A stretch of 43,180 nt of DNA from a virus, in IMG/VR virus record IMGVR_UViG_3300045591_000031; one strand, given 5' to 3'. The translations under genes were made by a program, and so were the position numbers. Shown piece by piece: positions 1-43,180 of this stretch. The notes below the pieces were generated by a model. It searched no databases, was not told where the DNA came from, and saw only the letters and a list, made by a program, of their open reading frames with translations. Within the stretch, counting starts at the first letter, position 1, and every line of letters starts with the position of its first letter.

Positions 1-127
1 TGCGGAAAATGCTTAAGCATCGGATAAATTATGGTATTGAGCAGTATCTCGGTCTTTTTCTGCAGTTTGAGCGTAAAATCATCCATTATCATGCACCTCA
101 CAGCCACTTATATTATCACACCCCCCC
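1..127. repeat. 127-bp terminal overlap, identical to 43054..43180 (circular-assembly redundancy)
   Basis: Base-by-base comparison: tgcggaaaatgcttaagc...tattatcacaccccccc occurs at both ends. It contains the 5' part of avd on the minus strand. Confidence 0.9.
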
Positions 128-818: not shown

Positions 819-1403
819 TTAGCCCTCCCTTCTGATGATCTGAGATCTGATGATCTTCGTTTGCCTGATCATCCCGAGTCCGATAAAGCGGTCTTCTCTC
901 ATGAGGTCATAGCGATACACTTTTCTGAGGTGCGATCTGCAGTTCTTTGCGTCCTCTAAAGCGGTGTCAAAGGTGCCGATGTCTGCATCCGCTGCGGACT
1001 TAGGCACCCGGATGTCAAACTCATAAGGCTTTGCCGTGGGGTCATTTAGGTCCTTATACTCAACTACTCTTGTTCCGATACCGAAGATGGTCCTGGCAAG
1101 ATCCTCTACCGTCCACTTTGTGCCAGCTCGCATGTACCAGAGCAGGCTGCTTTTGATTAACTCCCGCTTCTTCTGGGTCTCATACGTCTGGTCATAATGC
1201 TGCGTCCGAAGCTCTATAGCTAAAGCGTCCAGTACATCATCACTTGCATTGTCAATCGCAGGATAGATCAGGTCATACTGCATCAGATCCATGATCTTGT
1301 CCGTCTGGACTTTGAGTGCATACGAAAAAGCCTTGACTGCTGGTTCAGATTGTAAAGCTGGCGGGATAATGTCCGTTACCTGCAGGTCCTTTGTCTTAAC
1401 CAT
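819..1403 (-). CDS. Baseplate/tail protein, P2 gpI-like (194 aa)
   Basis: Lies directly downstream of the baseplate J gene. Size and sequence pattern (PPALQSEP...AFSYAL...) match gpI/XkdU-type proteins. Confidence 0.5.
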   Translation of the reverse strand: MVKTKDLQVTDIIPPALQSEPAVKAFSYALKVQTDKIMDLMQYDLIYPAIDNASDDVLDALAIELRTQHYDQTYETQKKRELIKSSLLWYMRAGTKWTVEDLARTIFGIGTRVVEYKDLNDPTAKPYEFDIRVPKSAADADIGTFDTALEDAKNCRSHLRKVYRYDLMREDRFIGLGMIRQTKIIRSQIIRREG

Positions 1404-2841
1404 TTACGATCCCTCCGTAGTTGACTGTGATCGAGTCTGCCACTGCCACAGCGGTCTTGTCGATCTGCGTGATTGTTGGCGACGTGACAGTGCACTGCAC
1501 AGCCCCAACATCTCTTAAGAGCGCTGTCAGCTCTGACGGATCAATTGGTCGTCCGATCTGGGAGCACTGCCATGTCTGGTACTGCTCCACCGCATCTGCT
1601 ACATCGTCTTGGATCGTCTCAGCAGCCTTTTCATCACTCTTTGCGATGTGATAAGTTAAAACAATATTGTAATTCGTGATGGCCGGATCCTTGACATAGA
1701 CCGTATCCGTCAGCGGCCTGCTGTCGTCCGCAGACAGACTGTCATAGATCTGCTGCTTGATCTCATCACTTAAGAGCTGTCCGTCCTCTCCAATTACGTA
1801 GATGTCAACCTCTCCTGGGGTAGGTGAGAGCACCTGAGCGTCCTTGACAGCGCTGGAAAAGGCCAGAGCCTTTGTCCTGTACGCGTAGGTCGGGCCAGTT
1901 GTCGTATAAGTCAAAGGCGCATCATAAATTCGCTGTCTCAGATCATCATCGTCTTCGGCATCAGCTCCGCCGCTTGAGACATCGAGGTTCATCACGTCAT
2001 CAACCCCGTCAATCTCATCAATCATCTCATTGATCTCGCTCGGCTGAAAGCCGTTTCCGATTGCTCCGGGAGTCTCACAGGTGGCTGTCACCTTTGCGAT
2101 TCTCGAAGAGTTCTGCCCGCCGATTGCGGCTGTGCTGGTGATTGCAGAGAGGTTAGGGATGGTCAGCTCAGTCTCTGTCAGAGCGTTTTCTGCCGCCCCG
2201 TTGCCAACTTCCCCGGGCTCATCGGCTGCAGTGTCAATTGATATTGAGGTCTCTCCCGCTGCCAGCGTGGACTGTGTCGTAGCCCTGAAGCTATACACCC
2301 CGTCGGCGGAGGAAAACTCTGTACCCGCAGGGATCACGATATCAGAGCCGTAAGCAGAGCTCAGCGTGATTGTGACCGTTGAACTTGCATAAGTCGCGGC
2401 TTCGATCACCGCCTCCTGATCCGTTGTAAAATAGACATCATCCTCTCCGGTGACCTCTGTGCCTACAGGGATGGTGATATCGGCTGACGGCTCTTCCTCT
2501 GCCATAAACTGCAAGGTGCAGATTGCAGGGACAGCGTCATTTCTGGAGACGCCTTTAAGCGCGCCGAGATGATCCAGATATTCTCCGTAGGCGTATTTAA
2601 GGAAATTCATTTTCGCATTCCGATCGATCAGATTGACCATCTGATCTAAGATATCGGCTGCTGACAGGATGACTGCCCGCATCGGGTCCGTCCTTGTCAA
2701 CTGGAAGTCCTTTCCGGTCAGCTCAGACATCTTCTCGCTGTAGTCAGCGATCATATCTGTCTCGATCGATTCCGCGGATATGCCATCCGTAAAATCGAGA
2801 TCCGGAATGCCTTCCAGAACTTCGTCCAACGATTTACTCAT
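1396..2841 (-). CDS. Baseplate J-like protein (P2 gpJ / Mu gp47 / XkdT family), 481 aa
   Basis: Synteny gpW-gpJ-gpI, size, and J-like N- and C-terminal regions with a Thr/Ser/Ala-rich central insertion. Confidence 0.7.
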   Translation of the reverse strand: MSKSLDEVLEGIPDLDFTDGISAESIETDMIADYSEKMSELTGKDFQLTRTDPMRAVILSAADILDQMVNLIDRNAKMNFLKYAYGEYLDHLGALKGVSRNDAVPAICTLQFMAEEEPSADITIPVGTEVTGEDDVYFTTDQEAVIEAATYASSTVTITLSSAYGSDIVIPAGTEFSSADGVYSFRATTQSTLAAGETSISIDTAADEPGEVGNGAAENALTETELTIPNLSAITSTAAIGGQNSSRIAKVTATCETPGAIGNGFQPSEINEMIDEIDGVDDVMNLDVSSGGADAEDDDDLRQRIYDAPLTYTTTGPTYAYRTKALAFSSAVKDAQVLSPTPGEVDIYVIGEDGQLLSDEIKQQIYDSLSADDSRPLTDTVYVKDPAITNYNIVLTYHIAKSDEKAAETIQDDVADAVEQYQTWQCSQIGRPIDPSELTALLRDVGAVQCTVTSPTITQIDKTAVAVADSITVNYGGIVNG

Positions 2842-3163: not shown

Positions 3164-3549
3164 ACCTCCTCTACACTCACAGCGGCCGTGGCGGCTATGG
3201 GCTCTCCATTTGACCAGGCTGTGTAATCCGTGTTCAGAGACGTGATCCGCACATCCTTATAAAAGACGGAGGATCCGCCAAGGATGAACTTGAGCACAGT
3301 ACCCTTTTTTGCATACGTCCTGAGTGTATGGCAGGCTTCCTTTACATCCACCCCCAGACTCGTAAAGAGCGGGAGATTAAAGGACCCTGTGGACCTCGCT
3401 GTGCCGTTGTACTGCGTGCCCGGTCTCTTATTGATGTAATTGATCTCGCTGATTCTCGGCGAGTCCGTCCGGCTGAAGCTGTTAAAGGACATCACCTTAT
3501 CCTGCGAGACCTCAAAGGGGATATCCCCCAGCTGTCCAACTACTCCCAT
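3160..3549 (-). CDS. Tail/baseplate protein with P2 GpU-like pattern (129 aa)
   Basis: The pattern F.V....F....R.......RPGTQY.G....F.L.L parallels P2 GpU. Called by position and pattern only. Confidence 0.4.
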   Translation of the reverse strand: MGVVGQLGDIPFEVSQDKVMSFNSFSRTDSPRISEINYINKRPGTQYNGTARSTGSFNLPLFTSLGVDVKEACHTLRTYAKKGTVLKFILGGSSVFYKDVRITSLNTDYTAWSNGEPIAATAAVSVEEV

Positions 3550-3551
3550 AC

Positions 3552-3893
3552 CTAAAACTCCTTCGTTCCGCTATCTGTTTTAAAGATGATGGACTTTGCC
3601 TTGATCGTAAGCTCTCTGCCATCGATCTGCCACTTATCCTTGGTCGGGAGTGTCTTCGGCTTACTACCTTGGCCGTTATAAAACTCGCCCAGGCAGTAAG
3701 CAGAGCCAATGTCGTCATCAATCAGGACAAGCACCTGAGCGCCTTTGTCTGGCATGCGGGTAGACTTAGCAAAGCCGCAGCAGACGCAGACATCATCAAG
3801 CGCTTCTTTCTCTTTTCCCGTATCATCAAAGAGCACCCTGACGGTGCCCTTCTTGTAGTTCACTTTCTTGACTGTTGCTCTTCTGATCCGCAT
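3552..3893 (-). CDS. Baseplate spike/assembly protein, gpV / Mu gp45-like (113 aa)
   Basis: Small OB-fold-like protein immediately after the hub gene (ATVKKVNYKKGTVRVLFDD...). Confidence 0.5.
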   Translation of the reverse strand: MRIRRATVKKVNYKKGTVRVLFDDTGKEKEALDDVCVCCGFAKSTRMPDKGAQVLVLIDDDIGSAYCLGEFYNGQGSKPKTLPTKDKWQIDGRELTIKAKSIIFKTDSGTKEF

Positions 3894-3894
3894 A

Positions 3895-6708
3895 TCACAC
3901 CTTCTTCAGCACCTGGAATGTTGTGTTGTTAAATCGGCCAATCTTAGACAGGCCGTGCGCTCTGGCATAAGCGGCAGAGCAGTGGACATCAATACCAAGA
4001 CCATGCCAGGTTGGGCCACCCTGTGCTTCCTCGTAATCGACAACTTTCAGGATCTTACCGTTTAGTGGATGTCGGCTGTCTGTGATCTTGATATAGCTCC
4101 CCCGCGGAACTTTAGAAAAGTTGTTACTTGCTACGCACAGACCTGTCCAGTCCTTGACGGCGGTCCGCTTGAGCCAGCTCCCGTAAGGGGTAGTGTAATA
4201 CGAAAAACTCGCCTTGAGCGTCTTCGCTATCTTGTACTCGCCCTTGGATGTGGTCAGCCTGCCGTGCTTATTAACTGATGTTATCTTCGAGCTATCCGCC
4301 TTCTTTTGCGGAGTGGACAGTGACGTGAGCTCTGCACTGCTGACCCAGCCTAAGACCTTAGTCTTTTTCTCGACCTTTTTATACTTGATCGTCAAGCTCT
4401 TAGCGTCGCCTGGCTTATAATTTTTATCCGTATGATAGATCAGGATGCCCTTTTTCCCATGCGTCCGATCGTCCACGGTGTACTGTTTCCCGTTGATCGT
4501 GACTTTGGAGCCAATCGGGAGCCAGTCACAGGCGCAGGAGTGATTTGTGAGCTTGCGGCCAGTTGAGCCATTGCCGGACTTGCTCGTGTAGCCCTGCACG
4601 CTGACCGCCTTTTTCTGCCATTTGGAGTAGGTCGGAAGGCTCTCGATCTGGTATGTGTACTTGCCTTTCTTGTCCACCTTCCGGATCTTAACCTTCATAC
4701 CGCCTTTGATCTTTGTGGCTTTTCCGCCTTTAGATGAGCTATGCACATATCCGCCCTTAAACTTGGCCTTGCTTCCCTTTTTCCGGTAAGTCTTGCCGCC
4801 GTTGGAGCTGTTGATCTTATGCATCTCAATCTCCTGCGTGTAAAATCCGGAAGAAGACGGCTGATGCGTGACTTGATCCAGAAACCACTTGCCCGCGAGC
4901 TTGCCCCAATCGGAGGACAGCTTGACGGTGTTGGCGGCCTTGACTTTCTTGTAGCCTCCGGGGATCGTCATAGTTAGCTTTTCGATTCCCTCATTGGCCT
5001 GAGCCATCTTGTACTTGGCGATCCTCTTGGCGTCGGCCTTATCGTATCCGGCCGTATCTACCGCCAGAGTCCGGGAGATGTTGTGCTTATGGACGACTCT
5101 CACTGTCTTCAGTTTAGCGTTCTTCCGGTTTTTCCCTTTGCCTTTCCCGAGGTACACGTAGCTGTATACCGTCTTGCGGAATACCCGTTTAACGGCCACC
5201 TGATTGGAGTACTCTTTGGTGGTGGTGTAGTTCTTTCCCGTTGACTTATAGACCCGGGACTTATCCACCCCGGAGTCATTTCCTCCGTCAATTCCCAGAT
5301 GGATATATCCCAGGATCCCAGATGTGCGGTGGACCTTTCGGCACATGAGCGCACCAGATGTCCCGCCCCGGGTATTCCCCTCATAGGTCTCGATGTTATG
5401 CGCACTGTGCACCTTATAGACCAGGCCCACATGCTGCACGGAGGATCCGCCAGAAAAATTAAATACTACTGCATCCCCTGGGTGAGGCGTGTGGGACCAT
5501 CTGCCGTGCTGGATCGCCCAGTTTTTCCAGTTCGGCGCATAATCCGGATTAGGCAGGCCCGCTATAGCGTGCCCATTCCCTGATTTTCGCAAGCACCACC
5601 GGACGTAGGCTCCACACCATGGCCCAGGCTGCCCGTATTTACTTCCGGACCTTGTGCCTATCTGCGATCGGCAGGTTTTAAAGAGATCCGCGAGCTTTCC
5701 CGTGGCCTTTGAGGCGCTCCGCATCCAGACCTTTTTGGTGTAAGTTTTGGTTGTGGCGATCTTGGCCCAACCATCGTCATAGAGCTTAACCACTTTCAGC
5801 CGGGCGCCCTTTTTAAAGGTGCCTGTTGACACCGCATGCCCGCTCTTACTCTTCCGGGCTTTCACCGGGCGTTTAAGCGTAGCCTGCTGGTAGTAGGTGT
5901 AGGTCGTCTTGATTTTTTTATGGCCAACACTGACCTTGACATCCTTCTTTTTCTTTTTGTCCTGATAGGTGTTGGTCGCGTAGGTATAAGCGCCCAGGAT
6001 ATCATTGGTGTACTCATATCCCGACGCCGCCACCGACCGCTTGAGGGTAACAGCAGCGGCTTTCTGCGCATACCTTGACGCACTATATACATACAGCGTC
6101 CGGTTGGTGATCTTAACCCGGAGGCCGTATCGCTCACACAGATCAATTACAAAATCGCTGTCCGTCGCCCCGTCCTGCTGGATCGTCTTAACCTTGATCG
6201 TCGGTCCGTAGTACTTGAGCGTCATTTTGTTCCGGCTTGCAATCTTTTTAATAATCGCTTTAGCCGTTGTCTTTTTATAGGTTTTGTGGTGCTCCGTCGA
6301 GGAAAAGCCAGAGTATGATGGCATGGACAGCGCCTGCACGCTGACAGCCTCCGGCTCCGGTCCTGAGATGCTCGCACTGTCTACATACATCTTGCCAGTC
6401 TTGATCGTCGTGTCTGGCTGGATCGTCCAGTCCTTGGTCTTTATTGCGAGCGTAGCCGTCGAACCCTTAGCGGGAAGCCCCTTTTTAAGATAATTAAGGT
6501 CGCTGTTATCCAGGGAAAACTCCGCACTATCGCTGGACCCGTGGGCCACATCCGTGTAGGTGGCGGAGTCGATCAGCCTGGAGGAGACGCTCCGGCCTCC
6601 GAGCGTTGCAGTAACGGAAATAGACCGAGGATTCTGCGTCGTTCCGGAACTGGTCTTCTTGGAGTTTGCTTTGACCTCCTGATTAACTTTTGCCTTGGAT
6701 GTTGTCAT
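3895..6708 (-). CDS. Baseplate hub (late control gpD / Mu gp44-like) fused to an SH3-like domain, a CHAP peptidase domain and two C-terminal 3D/RlpA-like DPBB domains (937 aa)
   Basis: gpD-like N- and C-regions (SRLIDSATYTDVAHGSSDSAEFSL..., KWFLDQVTHQPSSSGFYTQEIEMHK). CHAP motifs: GPWCGAYVRWC (Cys near 5612) and VQHVGLVY (His near 5435). 3D-like segments: GYTS..STGRKL..CACDWLPIGSKVTINGKQYTVDDR and VASNNFSKVPRGSYIKITD...ILKVVDYE...GIDVHCS. Confidence 0.75.
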   Translation of the reverse strand: MTTSKAKVNQEVKANSKKTSSGTTQNPRSISVTATLGGRSVSSRLIDSATYTDVAHGSSDSAEFSLDNSDLNYLKKGLPAKGSTATLAIKTKDWTIQPDTTIKTGKMYVDSASISGPEPEAVSVQALSMPSYSGFSSTEHHKTYKKTTAKAIIKKIASRNKMTLKYYGPTIKVKTIQQDGATDSDFVIDLCERYGLRVKITNRTLYVYSASRYAQKAAAVTLKRSVAASGYEYTNDILGAYTYATNTYQDKKKKKDVKVSVGHKKIKTTYTYYQQATLKRPVKARKSKSGHAVSTGTFKKGARLKVVKLYDDGWAKIATTKTYTKKVWMRSASKATGKLADLFKTCRSQIGTRSGSKYGQPGPWCGAYVRWCLRKSGNGHAIAGLPNPDYAPNWKNWAIQHGRWSHTPHPGDAVVFNFSGGSSVQHVGLVYKVHSAHNIETYEGNTRGGTSGALMCRKVHRTSGILGYIHLGIDGGNDSGVDKSRVYKSTGKNYTTTKEYSNQVAVKRVFRKTVYSYVYLGKGKGKNRKNAKLKTVRVVHKHNISRTLAVDTAGYDKADAKRIAKYKMAQANEGIEKLTMTIPGGYKKVKAANTVKLSSDWGKLAGKWFLDQVTHQPSSSGFYTQEIEMHKINSSNGGKTYRKKGSKAKFKGGYVHSSSKGGKATKIKGGMKVKIRKVDKKGKYTYQIESLPTYSKWQKKAVSVQGYTSKSGNGSTGRKLTNHSCACDWLPIGSKVTINGKQYTVDDRTHGKKGILIYHTDKNYKPGDAKSLTIKYKKVEKKTKVLGWVSSAELTSLSTPQKKADSSKITSVNKHGRLTTSKGEYKIAKTLKASFSYYTTPYGSWLKRTAVKDWTGLCVASNNFSKVPRGSYIKITDSRHPLNGKILKVVDYEEAQGGPTWHGLGIDVHCSAAYARAHGLSKIGRFNNTTFQVLKKV

Positions 6709-35888: not shown

Positions 35889-35941
35889 AACAAGCCCCAT
35901 GATCGTACACGTTAGGACACGCTATGAGAGGAGGTAAGCTT

Positions 35942-37024
35942 ATGCCGTCGAAGAAAAAGAGATACACCTTTACCTTTAATGGTAAACGCTATAGTGTTTT
36001 CGCCGCTTCGGCCAAAGAGGCAGGTCTGAGGATAGCAGAGAGGCAGAAGGAGCTGGAGACAGAGAGTAAGAGCAGGTCCGGATCGCAACTGGTAAAGGAC
36101 TGGGCACTGGAGTGCATAGACACCTATAAGACCAATCTGCGGCCTAAAGTAAGGCGTGACTATGTGGATCTCGTGCGTCACTGCATCCTGGAGCCGATCG
36201 GGGATCTGCAGCTTAAAGCGGTGCAGCCGATCGACTGCCAGCAGTGCCTTAACCGCCTCTCTGGGATGTCCAACAGCTACATCAATGCCGTCTTCCAGGC
36301 GCTCCATTTTATCTTTAAATACGCGGTGATCAACGGACGCATCAGCACGGACCCCACAGAGGGCCTGATCAAGCCTACAGGCACCCGTAAAAAGCGCCGG
36401 GCACTTACTCCCGAGGAACGGGAAAAAGTCCTTGCCACGGCTCCCCAGCGACGCACGTGGTGGGTCTACCTCTTGATGATGCTCTGCGGCTGCCGTCCGG
36501 GAGAGGCGGCGGAGTGCAAGGGCTCTGACCTGGAGACCGTCATGTCTATGTCCGGTGATCCGGTCCATATCCTGCACATCCGAGGGACCAAAACTAAGGC
36601 CGCTGACCGCAGAGTGCCTGTGCCGGATGAGCTGTATGACCTGATCAGGGGTGTGCCGGCAGAGGAGTATATCTCTGTCACACGTAGTAACAGCAAACAC
36701 GGCCAGAACTGGTCCAGACATTTCCGAGCCTTTTGCAGGCATGCTAAGATCACAGCTGATGATCTCTCGGCTTACAATCTCCGCCATGAATATGGTACGG
36801 AGTGCGCAAGACGTGGTCTGGATGTGCGTGTTACGATGCGGCTCATGGGGCACTCCAGCATCAAGATGACAGCGGAGGTTTATACCAACCTGGAAGACTC
36901 CGACGTACTGACCTCAGTGTCCACGCTCCGTCATGCCAGATCTGGTGTGCACCCTGATAACTCATCAGATCAGGACGTGCACCCGCCTGTGCACCCGAAG
37001 GCCAGAGAGGTTGGAAACGCTTGA
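35942..37024 (+). CDS. int: Tyrosine integrase (phage integrase family)
   Basis: C-terminal catalytic region YNLRHEYGTECARRG...RLMGHSSIKMTAEVYTNL. Start at the ATG at 35942, preceded by GAGAGGAGGT. The ORF track starts at 35924. Confidence 0.9.
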   Translation: MPSKKKRYTFTFNGKRYSVFAASAKEAGLRIAERQKELETESKSRSGSQLVKDWALECIDTYKTNLRPKVRRDYVDLVRHCILEPIGDLQLKAVQPIDCQQCLNRLSGMSNSYINAVFQALHFIFKYAVINGRISTDPTEGLIKPTGTRKKRRALTPEEREKVLATAPQRRTWWVYLLMMLCGCRPGEAAECKGSDLETVMSMSGDPVHILHIRGTKTKAADRRVPVPDELYDLIRGVPAEEYISVTRSNSKHGQNWSRHFRAFCRHAKITADDLSAYNLRHEYGTECARRGLDVRVTMRLMGHSSIKMTAEVYTNLEDSDVLTSVSTLRHARSGVHPDNSSDQDVHPPVHPKAREVGNA

Positions 37025-38192: not shown

Positions 38193-38217
38193 GAGCCGGA
38201 GCGAATCGCCCCGGCTC
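38193..38217. terminator. Bidirectional terminator between the moron cassette and the endolysin gene
   Basis: gagccgg-a-gcga-a-tcgc-c-ccggctc hairpin, flanked by A6 upstream and a T-rich run downstream. The two genes converge on it. Confidence 0.7.
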
Positions 38218-38220
38218 GTA

Positions 38221-38751
38221 TTAATTTTTGAGATAATCAAGGATCCCCTTGGCCATCTGCACGCCGATGGTCTTAGCCTTTTTGTGCATCAGAGCATTAT
38301 CGGCCTTGATCGATCCAACCTCAAAAATGCACGCCGGACACAGCGTCGCGTTGAGCTCATACAGATCAGTGCGCTTGCACACACCCCTCGTTTTCGTGCC
38401 CCTGATCCGGAGCACCCTTCTGTTCATGGCTGCGGCCAATTTCCGGCCATCGGTGGACGTGTACAACGGGAGAGTGCCGGAGGGTGCCTTATCATAGTCG
38501 CAGTGGACCGATACGTAGAGCTCCGCCCTTGCCGAGTTGGCCCACGTGACATCTGCAACCATGTTGCGATTATTACCGTGATCGGCATCACTGAGCACCT
38601 TAACCCCGTGCTTACGCAGATAGGCAACGCATGCCTTTGTAATCGGCAGCATCATCTCCGCCTCAGTGTCTCCCTTATAGGTACAGCCACTATCCCACAC
38701 GCCATTAGTCATGGTGCCGTGGCCGCAGTTAATCGCTACCTTGTGTGCCAT
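38221..38751 (-). CDS. Endolysin: N-acetylmuramoyl-L-alanine amidase (Amidase_3-like), 176 aa
   Basis: VAINCGHG...AELYVSVHCD...TRGV pattern. Follows the holin gene with a 1-nt overlap. Confidence 0.8.
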   Translation of the reverse strand: MAHKVAINCGHGTMTNGVWDSGCTYKGDTEAEMMLPITKACVAYLRKHGVKVLSDADHGNNRNMVADVTWANSARAELYVSVHCDYDKAPSGTLPLYTSTDGRKLAAAMNRRVLRIRGTKTRGVCKRTDLYELNATLCPACIFEVGSIKADNALMHKKAKTIGVQMAKGILDYLKN

Positions 38752-39050
38752 TACTCCTCACCTCCCTTGCTCGTTGACTCAATGATGTCCTCGTCTGTCA
38801 CGCTCTCATCCTTGCGCTCGATGTCATCTCTTGAGGCATCCGCCTCTGCATATGCCGCAGCATCCAGCTCAGGCAGTCCGGCGATGCTGGTAAGCAGGCT
38901 CAAAATTGCCGCCAGCACAGATGCCGACAGCACCATCCGCCAGTCTACGGATTCGAGTGCCGCCGCCGTTCCGATTGTGGCTACTGCAGTCTGCGCCAGC
39001 GTTTTGATCGCCCTAATTCCTGCCGCTTCAATCCATCTCTTTTCTTTCAA
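38751..39050 (-). CDS. Holin (99 aa)
   Basis: IRAIKTLAQTAVATIG plus a second hydrophobic segment (VLSASVLAAILSLLTSIAG), and a charged C-terminal tail. Lies immediately upstream of the endolysin gene. Confidence 0.6.
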   Translation of the reverse strand: MKEKRWIEAAGIRAIKTLAQTAVATIGTAAALESVDWRMVLSASVLAAILSLLTSIAGLPELDAAAYAEADASRDDIERKDESVTDEDIIESTSKGGEE

Positions 39051-39429: not shown

Positions 39430-39460
39430 TTAAAATACAAGAGCGGGGCTTTTGTCCCGC
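39430..39460 (-). terminator. Rho-independent terminator after the DGR-target operon
   Basis: Minus strand reads gcgggac-aaaa-gccccgc (39460-39443) followed by tcttgtatttt. Confidence 0.55.
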
Positions 39461-39466
39461 AAGTTG

Positions 39467-39646
39467 TTAAGCTGTAGCTTCAGTGTCCTTTTTGACTGCG
39501 TAGCCGTCTGCTCCGATCTCATAGCCGTCTGCTGTCAGCACGGCATCAACGTCATCTTTAAAGGCTTTGGCGTATCTTGGAATTTTGAAAAATGCGTTGT
39601 AGTTGAGTCTCCGCGCTTCGACCTGCATGCAAATATAAAGTACCAT
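39467..39646 (-). CDS. Small hypothetical protein (59 aa; below the ORF-track cutoff)
   Basis: Hand translation: MVLYICMQVEARRLNYNAFFKIPRYAKAFKDDVDAVLTADGYEIGADGYAVKKDTEATA. Preceded by GGAAAGGAG. Confidence 0.4.
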   Translation of the reverse strand: MVLYICMQVEARRLNYNAFFKIPRYAKAFKDDVDAVLTADGYEIGADGYAVKKDTEATA

Positions 39647-39664: not shown

Positions 39665-39826
39665 CTACTGCGCCTTAGCGTCTGTAGTAGTAGTGGATGT
39701 ATCGTCAACAGCGGAAGTGTCCGCTGAGGACATCAGAATGTAATTGATTGCGTCCTGCGTAGCCTGCAGCTGTTCCTGCAGGTCCTGGATCGCTGAGCTT
39801 TCTTTCGGTTTAAATTCCTGGCGCAT
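39665..39826 (-). CDS. Small hypothetical protein (53 aa; below the ORF-track cutoff)
   Basis: Hand translation: MRQEFKPKESSAIQDLQEQLQATQDAINYILMSSADTSAVDDTSTTTTDAKAQ. Its ATG overlaps the target stop (TAATG). Confidence 0.4.
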   Translation of the reverse strand: MRQEFKPKESSAIQDLQEQLQATQDAINYILMSSADTSAVDDTSTTTTDAKAQ

Positions 39827-41436
39827 TAAATCACCCCCAGACTAATTGCGCTGATACTGATCTCTCCTGTGGCCTTGCCTGCAGTGATTCTGATCTTGAC
39901 TGCAGCGGACCACTTGTCGGCTGTCTTGGAGTTGTTGTTAAAAGTGTGAATGGAGTCAGGTGTGTAAGACTCCCATGCTGGAGAGGCATCCTCAGCATTG
40001 TTGCAAACCCACATCTCCGCAGTCGCCTTGCTGTCAATGCTATCCTGAAGGAAGACGCTGATGCTGGTCGGCTGGCTATCGAGGTCATATGGCAGAGTCT
40101 GCACCTCCAGGACGTTCCCGATCTTGATCCTGATAGCCGGTGAGTAGGATGGTGTCAGAGATCCTGCGTCTGTAGAAACTGCCCTCACATAGACCTCTGT
40201 CCCCAGGGTCTGTCCGGTGACTTTGATCCGGATGCGCTTTCCAGCATCATCATTGGTGACCGTCTCTGCGCTTTTCCAGGTGTTTGTCGAGGTGTCATAA
40301 ACCTCTGCTCCCGTGTACTCTTTGACGGAGGCAAAGTCCGAAGAGGCTGAGACCTGCACCTTGAGCGTCTGTGCATCCTTTTCTGCGTCAGTGCCGGTGA
40401 CTATTTCTGTGTAAAATTCTGCAGGCTGCCTGAGTCCTGTCACCAGATTGCTGATGGTAGGCGCTGCAGCAGATGAGTTGGTCTTGTTAAAGGTATACGT
40501 GGCCGTAGTTGCTGCAGCGTTGCTGTCAGTCACTACGACCTTAATGGTATGACTGGCGAGTGACAAGGAGGCCCAGTACTTGCTAAGATCAATCGTGTGT
40601 GACGCGTTCGCGGTGCCGGAAAAGGTCTCAATCTGCGAGTTATCAAGCAGGATGCTTCCGGTCATACTGTCGCCATCGCTGTCAGTCGCTGTTACCGCAA
40701 TTTTAAATGCAGCCTTACAATCGCCGTAATCCTTACTTTGTGGCGAAACCACAGGGGCAGTGTTCAGGATTCGGAGGGCGGGCCGCCACCCGTAGTAATA
40801 GTTGTAACCGTAGTGGTAATTGCTACCCCAGTAGCGCGCGCCGATGTAGCCACGGAGCGGCCTATAGTCAGAACCGTTTGAAGTTTCCGTCTCACTGCAC
40901 CAACTGTAACATCCAGCCCAGTGCCAAAGTGCCCCATTCGCAGAAGTATAGTCGGCAGACGCTAAGTTAGTATCCAGATCTGCGGAGTTTGGCTTTGGCA
41001 GTCCGCTGATATTACCGAGACCTCCGATATAGCGATCCCACTGATTGGATGTATCCGAAGAGGACGTACCTCCCGTCAACATAAAGAGCTCATACTTTGC
41101 GCCGTCAATGGTGATGGTCTTTCCGCTGCCTTTTTTACCGCAGTATCCTAAAGCGTTGAGTCGGTCCCATGTAATATTTACAACCAAATTACGGTCGCAG
41201 ATCAGGAGCCTGTCTGATCCGTCATTGACCTCGACCCATCTAAGCTTATATGCATCAGAGCTATCTGTGTTTCCAATCGTAATTGCAGTGCTGGTGCTGT
41301 TATTGTTATTGTAGATATTACCCGCGGAAGACTGTCCATCAGGGGTACTGTCAGGTCTCCACGGCTTAGTTGGATAAGGCTGCTTGCTTCCACCGCAGTA
41401 GAGCGTTCCAAGTTTGATGATATCGCCTGTAGCCAT
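39826..41436 (-). CDS. DGR target (variable) protein: N-terminal C-type-lectin/FGE-like fold ending in the VR (aa about 193-220), followed by about 316 aa of Ig-like/beta-rich domains (536 aa)
   Basis: Contains the VR. The sequence ...WHWAGCYSWCSE...RPLRGYIGARYWGSNYHYGYNYYYGWRPAL is typical of CLec-fold DGR targets. SD GGAAAGGAG lies 30 nt after the RT stop. Confidence 0.9.
   Translation of the reverse strand: MATGDIIKLGTLYCGGSKQPYPTKPWRPDSTPDGQSSAGNIYNNNNSTSTAITIGNTDSSDAYKLRWVEVNDGSDRLLICDRNLVVNITWDRLNALGYCGKKGSGKTITIDGAKYELFMLTGGTSSSDTSNQWDRYIGGLGNISGLPKPNSADLDTNLASADYTSANGALWHWAGCYSWCSETETSNGSDYRPLRGYIGARYWGSNYHYGYNYYYGWRPALRILNTAPVVSPQSKDYGDCKAAFKIAVTATDSDGDSMTGSILLDNSQIETFSGTANASHTIDLSKYWASLSLASHTIKVVVTDSNAAATTATYTFNKTNSSAAAPTISNLVTGLRQPAEFYTEIVTGTDAEKDAQTLKVQVSASSDFASVKEYTGAEVYDTSTNTWKSAETVTNDDAGKRIRIKVTGQTLGTEVYVRAVSTDAGSLTPSYSPAIRIKIGNVLEVQTLPYDLDSQPTSISVFLQDSIDSKATAEMWVCNNAEDASPAWESYTPDSIHTFNNNSKTADKWSAAVKIRITAGKATGEISISAISLGVI
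40778..40861 (-). repeat. DGR variable repeat (VR), 84 bp
   Basis: 73/84 identical to the TR. All 11 differences are at TR adenines (coding strand). Encodes ...R YWGSNYHYGYNYYY GWRPA. Confidence 0.95.
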
Positions 41437-42525: not shown

Positions 42526-42679
42526 AAAGGCATACTCTCCAGTCTTGGCTTTATGTCATTACTCTTGTGTTTACGCATTGCGAAGGATTACCGCTCCCCT
42601 ATCTGACTTTTATCAGTCTGCCAGGCAAGCCGTAGCCGGCCTGGTCAATCGTGCTTATCACTCTGATACTCTCGATAGC

Positions 42680-42763
42680 GCGGGCCGCCACCCGTTGTTA
42701 TTGTTGTAATTGTTGTGGTTATTGTTATTCCAGTTGCGCGCGCCGATGTAGCCACGGAGCGGC
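42680..42763 (-). repeat. DGR template repeat (TR), 84 bp
   Basis: Non-coding, between avd and RT. The coding-sense strand carries 11 AAY codons (N W N N N N H N N Y N N N N) and 26 adenines. Confidence 0.95.
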
Positions 42764-42791: not shown

Positions 42792-43139
42792 CTATCTTAA
42801 GGACCGCATCAGCCCTCCGCAGATTCTTCCAAGCTCAGCAAGGCAGGACTGCAGATACCAGGCCTTTTTCTCTGTGATGTATTTCTGGTCTCGCGCCACA
42901 TTGAAAAGTACCTTGAGATACTGGATCTCTGCGTCTATCCGTCTTAAGTACAGCATCTTCTCTTTCTGCATCGCTGTCTTATACAGCGCGCAGTTCCTCA
43001 GGATTCGGTAGTGGGCCTGTTTGATCTCCTGACACAGCGCAAATTTTTCTGCCTGCGGAAAATGCTTAAGCATCGGATAAATTATGGTATTGAGCAGTAT
43101 CTCGGTCTTTTTCTGCAGTTTGAGCGTAAAATCATCCAT
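42792..43139 (-). CDS. avd: Accessory variability determinant (Avd-like four-helix-bundle protein), 115 aa
   Basis: KHFPQAEKFALCQEIKQAHYRILRN matches the FPK.EK..L..Q..RA..S signature of the Avd / S23-IVS four-helix-bundle family. Basic and helical. Start at the ATG at 43139, preceded by GAGGTG (the ORF track begins at a GTG at 43160). Confidence 0.75.
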   Translation of the reverse strand: MDDFTLKLQKKTEILLNTIIYPMLKHFPQAEKFALCQEIKQAHYRILRNCALYKTAMQKEKMLYLRRIDAEIQYLKVLFNVARDQKYITEKKAWYLQSCLAELGRICGGLMRSLR

Positions 43140-43180
43140 TATCATGCACCTCACAGCCACTTATATTATCACACCCCCCC
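43054..43180. repeat. Second copy of the 127-bp terminal overlap
   Basis: Identical to 1..127. Confidence 0.9.

Follow-up and report, generated by a model that had tools for sequence, protein, structure and literature searches.

The virus record IMGVR_UViG_3300045591_000031 of IMG/VR, a stretch of 43,180 nucleotides (nt) that we analyzed over its whole length and call the window, carries a diversity-generating retroelement (DGR) whose variable repeat (VR) lies inside its target gene, with a long coding extension behind it. The locus raises the question of what such a target does for its phage. A first-pass annotation had proposed that the protein is the distal receptor-binding protein and that the DGR switches tropism, a role that we regard as plausible and putative. 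Our analysis identified the target as a tentaclin, with three immunoglobulin (Ig)-like domains and a head other than DUF6273; both the architecture and the gene order have already been published for this family. On balance we favor the reading that it is a virion-attached adhesin or receptor-binding ‘tentacle’, serving as the single target of a complete DGR composed of the accessory protein Avd, a template repeat (TR) and a reverse transcriptase (RT).

The retroelement and its target protein

The DGR was recognized from an RT of the DGR clade, an adenine-specific TR/VR pair and the accessory protein bAvd. The RT contains LGNVTSQ, a motif of DGR RTs, and is 46% identical to the RT of Faecalibacterium phage FP_Mushu (Mushu). 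The TR and VR are 87 nt long and differ at 12 positions, 11 of them TR adenines, changing nine codons within 202-215; the TR-encoded N-W-NNNN-H-NN-Y-NNNN reads Y-W-GSNY-H-YG-Y-NYYY in the VR. The twelfth difference, G>C at the 3’ edge in codon 220, comes just after a GC-rich 3’ end, GGGTGGCGGCCCGC, common to the two repeats. Adenine is present in 15 TR codons (eleven AAY, two TAC, one ATC and one CAC), corresponding to up to 15 recodable codons in the target (197, 198, 202 and 204-215) and, by arithmetic from the TR codons, to about 15^11 x 4^4, or roughly 2 x 10^15, possible protein variants. With every A of the TR written as N, the pattern matched the window twice, at the TR and at the VR, compared to 0 matches expected by chance. 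A search for a second VR in the window with this masked pattern found none; the DGR therefore has a single target. The first-pass annotation had described the VR as internal and followed by an extension of about 316 amino acids (aa). Both statements stood, as the differences at TR adenines map to residues 202-215 of 536 and 315 residues follow the GWRPAL sequence (residues 216-221).

The same segment is hypervariable among natural relatives. Clustering at 90% identity places the window protein in a group of 78 sequences, 15 members of which are 94% identical outside residues 197-215 but only 44% identical inside them; a single site may show as many as nine different residues. The 15 variants do not vary where the TR codon has no adenine (199-201 and W203). 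The confinement of hypervariation to the VR in these relatives shows that the DGR is active in nature. Some cluster relatives carry G, S, Y, N or D at position 198 and Y at position 208, residues unreachable by adenine changes from the TR codons ATC and CAC, and the TRs of those relatives probably differ at the codons for 198 and 208.

AlphaFold2 modelled the whole target, using a 46-sequence alignment, with a predicted local distance difference test score (pLDDT) of 93.6, giving a mixed alpha/beta head (residues ~1-226) and three beta-sandwich domains. The head was modelled apart, since the whole-model Foldseek search was swamped by generic tandem-Ig matches, and residues 1-230 alone reached a pLDDT of 95.1 and a predicted template-modelling score of 0.92. 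According to DSSP, the variable codons 202-215 span in both models a strand (203-207), a loop and a second strand (215-217), a predicted beta-hairpin. The top 50 matches of the head in the Protein Data Bank (PDB) were all from the FGE (formylglycine-generating enzyme)/C-lectin superfamily, namely FGE, PvdO, EgtB/SenA, PorK, CarF and TvpA (2y3c; Foldseek probability 0.84, E 0.03, template-modelling (TM) score ~0.37). The earlier suggestion of a CLec/FGE-type head survived this comparison, although at weak scores, and the support for the modelled fold is consistent rather than strong. In the BFVD library of viral structures, the head matched virion structural proteins of phiKZ-like jumbo phages with E values down to 3e-9 and TM scores of ~0.5; these matches are to paralogous ‘virion structural proteins’ of PhiPA3, 201phi2-1, EL, Noxifer and Erwinia RisingSun. 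The family phrog_16120, also labelled ‘virion structural protein’, matched residues 75-247. Pfam returned no match to the head even at E<=10. The head is not a DUF6273 domain, and hhalign gave no alignment between it and the head of the tentaclin of phage nd4.

The extension behind the head had been described as Ig/fibronectin type III (FN3)-like, and this was upheld by the three modelled beta-sandwiches and by the whole-model Foldseek matches to tandem Ig/FN3 proteins (SGBP-B, RPTP-sigma, alpha-2-macroglobulins, RbmA and the CbhA Fn3 modules). A sequence-profile search of the PDB with the target gave one weak match, to the PKD domain 6aem (E 0.008), and homologues match Big_9 or Big_13. The C-terminal domain is the most conserved part of the target family. 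Nine of its residues (N479, N480, D483, P486, W488, E489, N501, K504 and A506) are invariant in a set made up of the window protein, Mushu gp52, nd4_tgt1, Brevibacillus phage Emery gp25 and 12 metagenomic relatives, and in the relatives listed the C-terminal module stops within a few residues of the protein C-terminus. The last 100 residues found nd4 (E 8e-12), nd12 (1e-4) and Mushu (4e-6) by tblastn, and the family profile aligned with nd4_tgt1 over Ig-like domain 1 and the C-terminal domain (hhalign probability 99.6).

Tentaclin relatives and the exchange of domains

Tentaclins were described by Baykov et al. (2023, Int J Mol Sci 24:17324, PMC10743442) as proteins with an N-terminal C-lectin domain, a VR that forms a surface beta-hairpin, and, at the C-terminus, an Ig domain that bears a conserved motif and was put forward as the virion anchor. 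The type members are nd4_tgt1 and nd12_tgt1; the ‘Hoc-like’ proteins from phages Mushu and Brigit were explicitly counted in the family. We found every one of the family features in the target: a C-lectin-type head, a VR beta-hairpin, Ig-like domains and a C-terminal domain with the motif, the motif having been matched by sequence comparison and not against the published seven-position logo (Fig. 5A of that paper). The nearest protein from a phage of a cultured host is Mushu gp52 (YP_009797350), with ~36% identity over 98% of the length.

A survey of bacterial genomes and metagenome-assembled genomes (MAGs) recovered 36 related loci, mostly from Clostridia (Oscillospiraceae, Ruminococcus, Eubacterium, Flavonifractor, Anaerovorax and Lutispora among them), the closest being a Clostridia MAG with 90% identity. 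At about 30 of the 36 loci, the target is closely preceded on its own strand by the end of an RT homologue, with Avd usually ~1.5 kb further upstream. We found a TR/VR pair at 25 loci, with mismatches almost all at TR adenines and 301-404 residues after the VR. The first-pass annotation had presented the avd-TR-RT-target order and the internal VR as departures from the textbook arrangement. The order itself was confirmed by the bAvd and RVT_1 matches, and the contrast with Mtd, whose VR is at the C-terminus, is real; what did not hold is that either is peculiar to the window phage. Because the order and the internal VR recur across the surveyed loci, both are, on this comparative evidence, traits of the family. 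An exhaustive search with the family profile returned 5,111 clusters at 50% identity with E<=0.001, and 604 with E<=1e-30.

The gene series baseplate J, P2-I, short fibre, Avd, RT, target, small open reading frames (ORFs) and lysis also occurs in Mushu, in an Anaerovorax prophage, in a further surveyed locus (L003) and in nd4; in Mushu no fibre is annotated between the P2-I-like gene and Avd. In locus L008 (Clostridia MAG HGM13489, 90% identical), a 569-aa ORF at 3395-5104 stands between the short fibre gene and avd. We considered the 2.1-kb difference from the window at this place as a second target and rejected it, as the ORF resembles an insertion sequence-type transposase by the appearance of its sequence.

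Heads and C-terminal modules are exchanged among these proteins. The protein P0116 combines a DUF6273 head with a C-terminal module 48% identical to that of the window protein, in the same synteny. Conversely, the window-type head is C-terminal in other proteins (e.g. P0204 and P0261), and it is N-terminal in the 892-aa gp17 of Clostridium phage phi8074-B1 (L004, 8986-11664), a protein of a siphovirus tail module, at 39% identity. The gp17 head, including the motif RGY..AR...GWRP, is also found in ~30 Clostridium sporogenes CS phages. The phi8074-B1 group is absent from the leading organism names among the RT matches in the phage collection, suggesting that these phages probably have no DGR RT and that the head scaffold may be used in phi8074-B1-type phages without diversification. 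The C-terminal module, for its part, forms the end of the 649-aa gp25, which lies in the fibre position of Brevibacillus phage Emery and whose C-terminal 300 aa are homologous. We considered Emery gp25 as a fusion of the short fibre with a tentaclin C-terminal module, and rejected this because its N-terminal part is unlike the 229-aa fibre. The N-terminal partners of the C-terminal module are lectin heads, of the DUF6273 or the window type, or extra Ig domains; none of the proteins scanned that carry the module has a recognizable fibre N-terminus.

Tentaclin-type DGR targets are common in phages of gut Clostridia, and Mushu-like phages are, according to a preprint, some of the most prevalent in the human gut. 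What the window contributes is a complete circular genome that bears an integrase gene and encodes a single-target tentaclin with three Ig domains and a head other than DUF6273, along with abundant natural VR variants. The window phage is a usable comparative case, and the general picture is unchanged.

Readings of the target’s role

In the reading that we favor, the RT would make adenine-specific errors in copying the TR RNA, and the VR would be replaced by the cDNA, which recodes up to 15 codons of the beta-hairpin on the N-terminal head. The head would be carried on two Ig/FN3-like spacer domains, and the conserved C-terminal Ig-like domain would most likely dock the protein onto the virion, presenting the head outward as a flexible, probably monomeric, ligand-binding ‘tentacle’. 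In every locus examined the target gene lies between the baseplate/fibre genes and the lysis genes. This place within the late operon, with baseplate and stub-fibre genes on one side and lysis on the other, points to the tail or baseplate as the most likely docking site. Since the stub is the lone fibre gene, the tentaclin is the obvious ligand-binding candidate. The ligand would most likely be a variable bacterial surface glycan or protein, and the DGR would maintain a permanent reserve of adsorption specificities.

Several points weigh against this proposal. No experiment places any tentaclin on a virion, and a preprint (bioRxiv 10.64898/2026.05.08.723808) reported a lysogen-expressed Mushu homologue in an extracellular-vesicle fraction without visible phage particles. 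Tentaclins are also reported from groups of phages with a mutual similarity below 10%, including the further Faecalibacterium phage genera Brigit and Toutatis (PMC10743442), and with the family spread over such dissimilar phages a tail-specific docking site is not assured. The fold matches of the head in the PDB are weak (E 0.01-1, best ~0.01; TM 0.3-0.37). A search for a significant hairpin 3’ of the VR found none (z = -0.99). Roux et al. (PMC8144416) argued that VRs are placed C-terminally since this allows the cis elements of retrohoming an intergenic location; with an internal VR, as in all tentaclins, the sequence 3’ of it is embedded in the codons of the linker from the head to Ig-like domain 1, and the cis elements would have to lie within coding sequence. 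Published labels for the family disagree: the protein is called a ‘Hoc-like head decoration’ in PMC5883640, a ‘receptor-binding/adhesin’ protein set on a flexible stalk in PMC10743442, and elsewhere a lysogen-expressed, vesicle-associated lectin (bioRxiv 10.64898/2026.05.08.723808; see also PMC10805732). None of the three is based on a localization or binding experiment.

The gene immediately follows those for baseplate and fibre and precedes lysis, a position that would also suit the distal tip of a trimeric tail fibre, a primary receptor-binding protein whose tropism the DGR switches as in Mtd. The stub fibre, the lack of an annotated fibre at this place in Mushu, which leaves the tentaclin as the only obvious ligand binder, and the homologous head in the tail-module protein of phi8074-B1 agree with such a tip, and Roux et al. 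(PMC8144416) re-read Ig-linked DGR targets as tail fibres. We nevertheless consider a fibre tip unlikely. Profile comparison of the target with Mtd found no similarity (hhalign probability 0.1), and no fibre N-terminal or collar domain, coiled-coil, beta-helix or beta-prism trimerization element was detected in the target; the AlphaFold2 monomer is a beads-on-a-string row of Ig domains. The binding head is N-terminal, the reverse of characterized fibres, and a variable N-terminal head joined to a conserved C-terminus argues against a classical fibre tip. A link between fibre and tentaclin through fusion is also missing, given the dissimilarity of the short fibre to the N-terminal part of Emery gp25. 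A capsid location is, in our estimate, less probable still. As a Hoc-like decoration, the protein would stick virions to mucus or gut glycans through its lectin head (‘bacteriophage adherence to mucus’), a reading given in PMC5883640 and PMC11792537. The topology does resemble that of Hoc, with outward domains, Ig spacers and a C-terminal attachment domain, and phrog_10993 (‘Hoc-like head decoration’) matches residues 225-422. However, the family profile gave an hhalign probability of 1% to T4 Hoc with no match to the capsid-binding domain, Baykov et al. (PMC10743442) noted that the anchoring domain differs from that of Hoc, and at none of the loci examined is the gene among the head genes. 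Both phrog_10993 and phrog_36643 match head regions, DUF6273-type or window-type, of the scanned relatives, and T4 Hoc has no such head; from these matches, the two look like tentaclin families themselves. The PHROG label probably reflects the published ‘Hoc-like’ annotation of Mushu and Brigit, not a tested homology to Hoc, and the ‘Hoc-like head decoration’ label on this family is, on sequence comparison, without homology support.

The vesicle data raise a different prospect, namely that the target is mainly a product of lysogenic conversion, a lectin diversified and exported by the lysogen for carbohydrate interactions with the host or with microbes. In the same preprint (bioRxiv 10.64898/2026.05.08.723808) the Mushu homologue was transcribed, translated and vesicle-associated, with the DGR active in lysogeny, and RNA-seq data noted in PMC10805732 point the same way. 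We judge this very improbable for the window phage: neither a signal peptide nor a transmembrane segment is evident in the target sequence, the gene sits inside a late structural and lysis operon with no terminator-like site found between the fibre gene and avd, and spontaneous induction could explain the presence in the vesicle fraction. The invariant terminal domain, kept across phages of many hosts, better fits a structural partner on the phage. Within the favored reading of a virion-attached tentaclin, a bolder version is tentative and, to us, rather doubtful: the tentaclin would be the sole host-recognition protein of stub-fibre myophages, with its C-terminus docked on the 229-aa fibre stub or the baseplate as a two-piece inverted fibre, and the head would represent a distinct C-lectin subfamily without a Pfam family, common to tail proteins outside DGRs (phi8074-B1 gp17) and, by fold, to jumbo-phage virion proteins. 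If true, fibre polarity would be inverted, with the anchor at the C-terminus and the DGR-diversified head at the N-terminus.

Gene context and comparison with known systems

Window positions 1-127 are repeated exactly at 43054-43180 as a direct terminal repeat, and the genome is complete, circular or terminally redundant, at ~43.05 kb; the 43,180-nt contig is itself listed in JGI/IMG and in Logan. The identical ends close the contig and bring the DGR cassette straight after the fibre gene. From the fibre stop codon (129-131) to the avd ATG at 43139 (equivalent to position 86; MDDFTL...) there are 42 nt, and 36 nt to an upstream in-frame ATG at 43145; the cassette thus starts where the first-pass annotation had placed it, 42 nt past the fibre gene across the circular junction and ahead of lysis. 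All genes of the tail-DGR-lysis stretch are on the minus strand and were assigned by ORF, Pfam and PHROG matches (Table 1).

Table 1. Features of the tail, DGR and lysis region of the window and the integrase gene
Feature	Position	Strand	Basis or remark
Short tail fibre, 229 aa	129-818	-	phrog_7037 (residues 1-171 against profile 3-174 of 480)
Tail_P2_I-like gene	819-1403	-	Pfam
Baseplate_J gene	1396-2841	-	Pfam
Tyrosine integrase	35924-37024	+	ORF
Amidase_3 endolysin	38221-38751	-	Pfam/PHROG
Holin	38751-39050	-	between the small ORFs and the endolysin
53-aa ORF	39665-39826	-	start overlaps target stop codon (TAATG)
DGR target gene, 536 aa, tentaclin-type	39826-41436	-	ORF; phrog_36643 E 4.5e-81; AlphaFold2 pLDDT 93.6
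C-terminal Ig-like ‘anchor’ domain, residues ~441-536	39829-40116	-	motif NN..D..P.WE...N..K.A
Ig/FN3-like domain 2, residues ~321-440	40117-40476	-	AlphaFold2; Foldseek tandem Ig/FN3
Ig-like domain 1, residues ~229-320	40477-40752	-	AlphaFold2; PKD match 6aem; hhalign to nd4_tgt1
N-terminal head, residues ~1-226	40759-41436	-	C-lectin/FGE-like fold, predicted from model
Variable repeat (VR), codons ~193-221	40775-40861	-	87-nt repeat with TR
Codons 202-215, where VR differs from TR	40792-40833	-	strand-loop-strand (beta-hairpin) in model
DGR reverse transcriptase, 352 aa	41467-42525	-	LGNVTSQ and YMDD; RVT_1 E 5e-19; phrog_1423 E 5e-120
Template repeat (TR)	42677-42763	-	between avd and RT
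Avd accessory protein	42792-43145 (alternative start 43139)	-	Pfam bAvd E 6e-20; phrog_3206

The 229-aa fibre follows the P2-I-like and Baseplate_J genes, and its N-terminal ~170 aa alone match longer fibre families. The target gene has an AGGAG Shine-Dalgarno sequence 6 nt 5’ of its ATG. The overlap of its stop codon with the start of the 53-aa ORF suggests translational coupling, and an assembly factor is one possible role for the small product. In Mushu (gp53), nd4 and the Anaerovorax prophage, the tentaclin gene is likewise abutted or overlapped at its end by small ORFs; with the exception of L008, tblastn detected no mutual similarity among the small ORFs beyond tentaclin genes. Pfam gave no match for the target head, the 229-aa fibre or the small downstream ORFs. 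The presence of a tyrosine integrase gene indicates that the phage is temperate. A strong terminator-like hairpin (38193-38217, minus strand; 11-bp stem with nine GC pairs, then a T-run) follows the endolysin gene, and a weaker one (39443-39460, minus strand) lies between a 59-aa ORF (39467-39646) and a phrog_4105 gene. A 937-aa protein (3895-6708, minus strand) with a weak Phage_GPD match and SH3_3 and CHAP domains resembles, judging by these domains, a fusion of a baseplate hub with a cell-wall hydrolase. Megablast of the cassette against 50,697 phage records gave no match, and the phage itself is absent from that collection.

The closest published systems are the tentaclins of nd4 and nd12, which share with the window target the C-lectin head with a VR beta-hairpin, three Ig-like domains and the conserved C-terminal Ig domain; as in the window, the RT is immediately upstream of the target and the phage is a small gut myovirus. 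They differ in having a second, Mtd-like target, whereas the window phage has one, and the window head is not DUF6273, matches nothing in Pfam and was not aligned to the nd4 head by hhalign. Mushu gp52 resembles the window target in head type, in the Avd-TR-RT-target order and in its position after a P2-I-like tail gene, and the Mushu DGR has been shown to be active (PMC5883640). The Mushu protein has four Ig-like domains and 394 residues after the VR, compared to three and 315 in the window target; Mushu is a transposable, Mu-like phage, whereas the window phage has a tyrosine integrase and a 229-aa fibre gene.

Beyond the tentaclins, the classical DGR of Bordetella phage BPP-1 shares Avd, TR, RT, adenine-specific VR changes, a target with a C-lectin-type fold and a location next to a tail-fibre gene. 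Its order is mtd-avd-TR-brt, in contrast to that of the window. The end of the Mtd VR is 5 nt short of the stop codon, and Mtd, a trimer, carries a beta-prism at its N-terminus (cited in PMC10743442). T4 Hoc has tandem Ig-like domains and a C-terminal attachment domain, as does the window target, but it has no lectin head, hoc is placed among the head genes, and the likeness is limited to the generic Ig-like fold. For the head itself, the best matches among solved structures are the formylglycine-generating enzymes and Treponema denticola TvpA (2y3c), which is also a DGR target; TvpA is reportedly a bacterial lipoprotein with its VR at the C-terminus.

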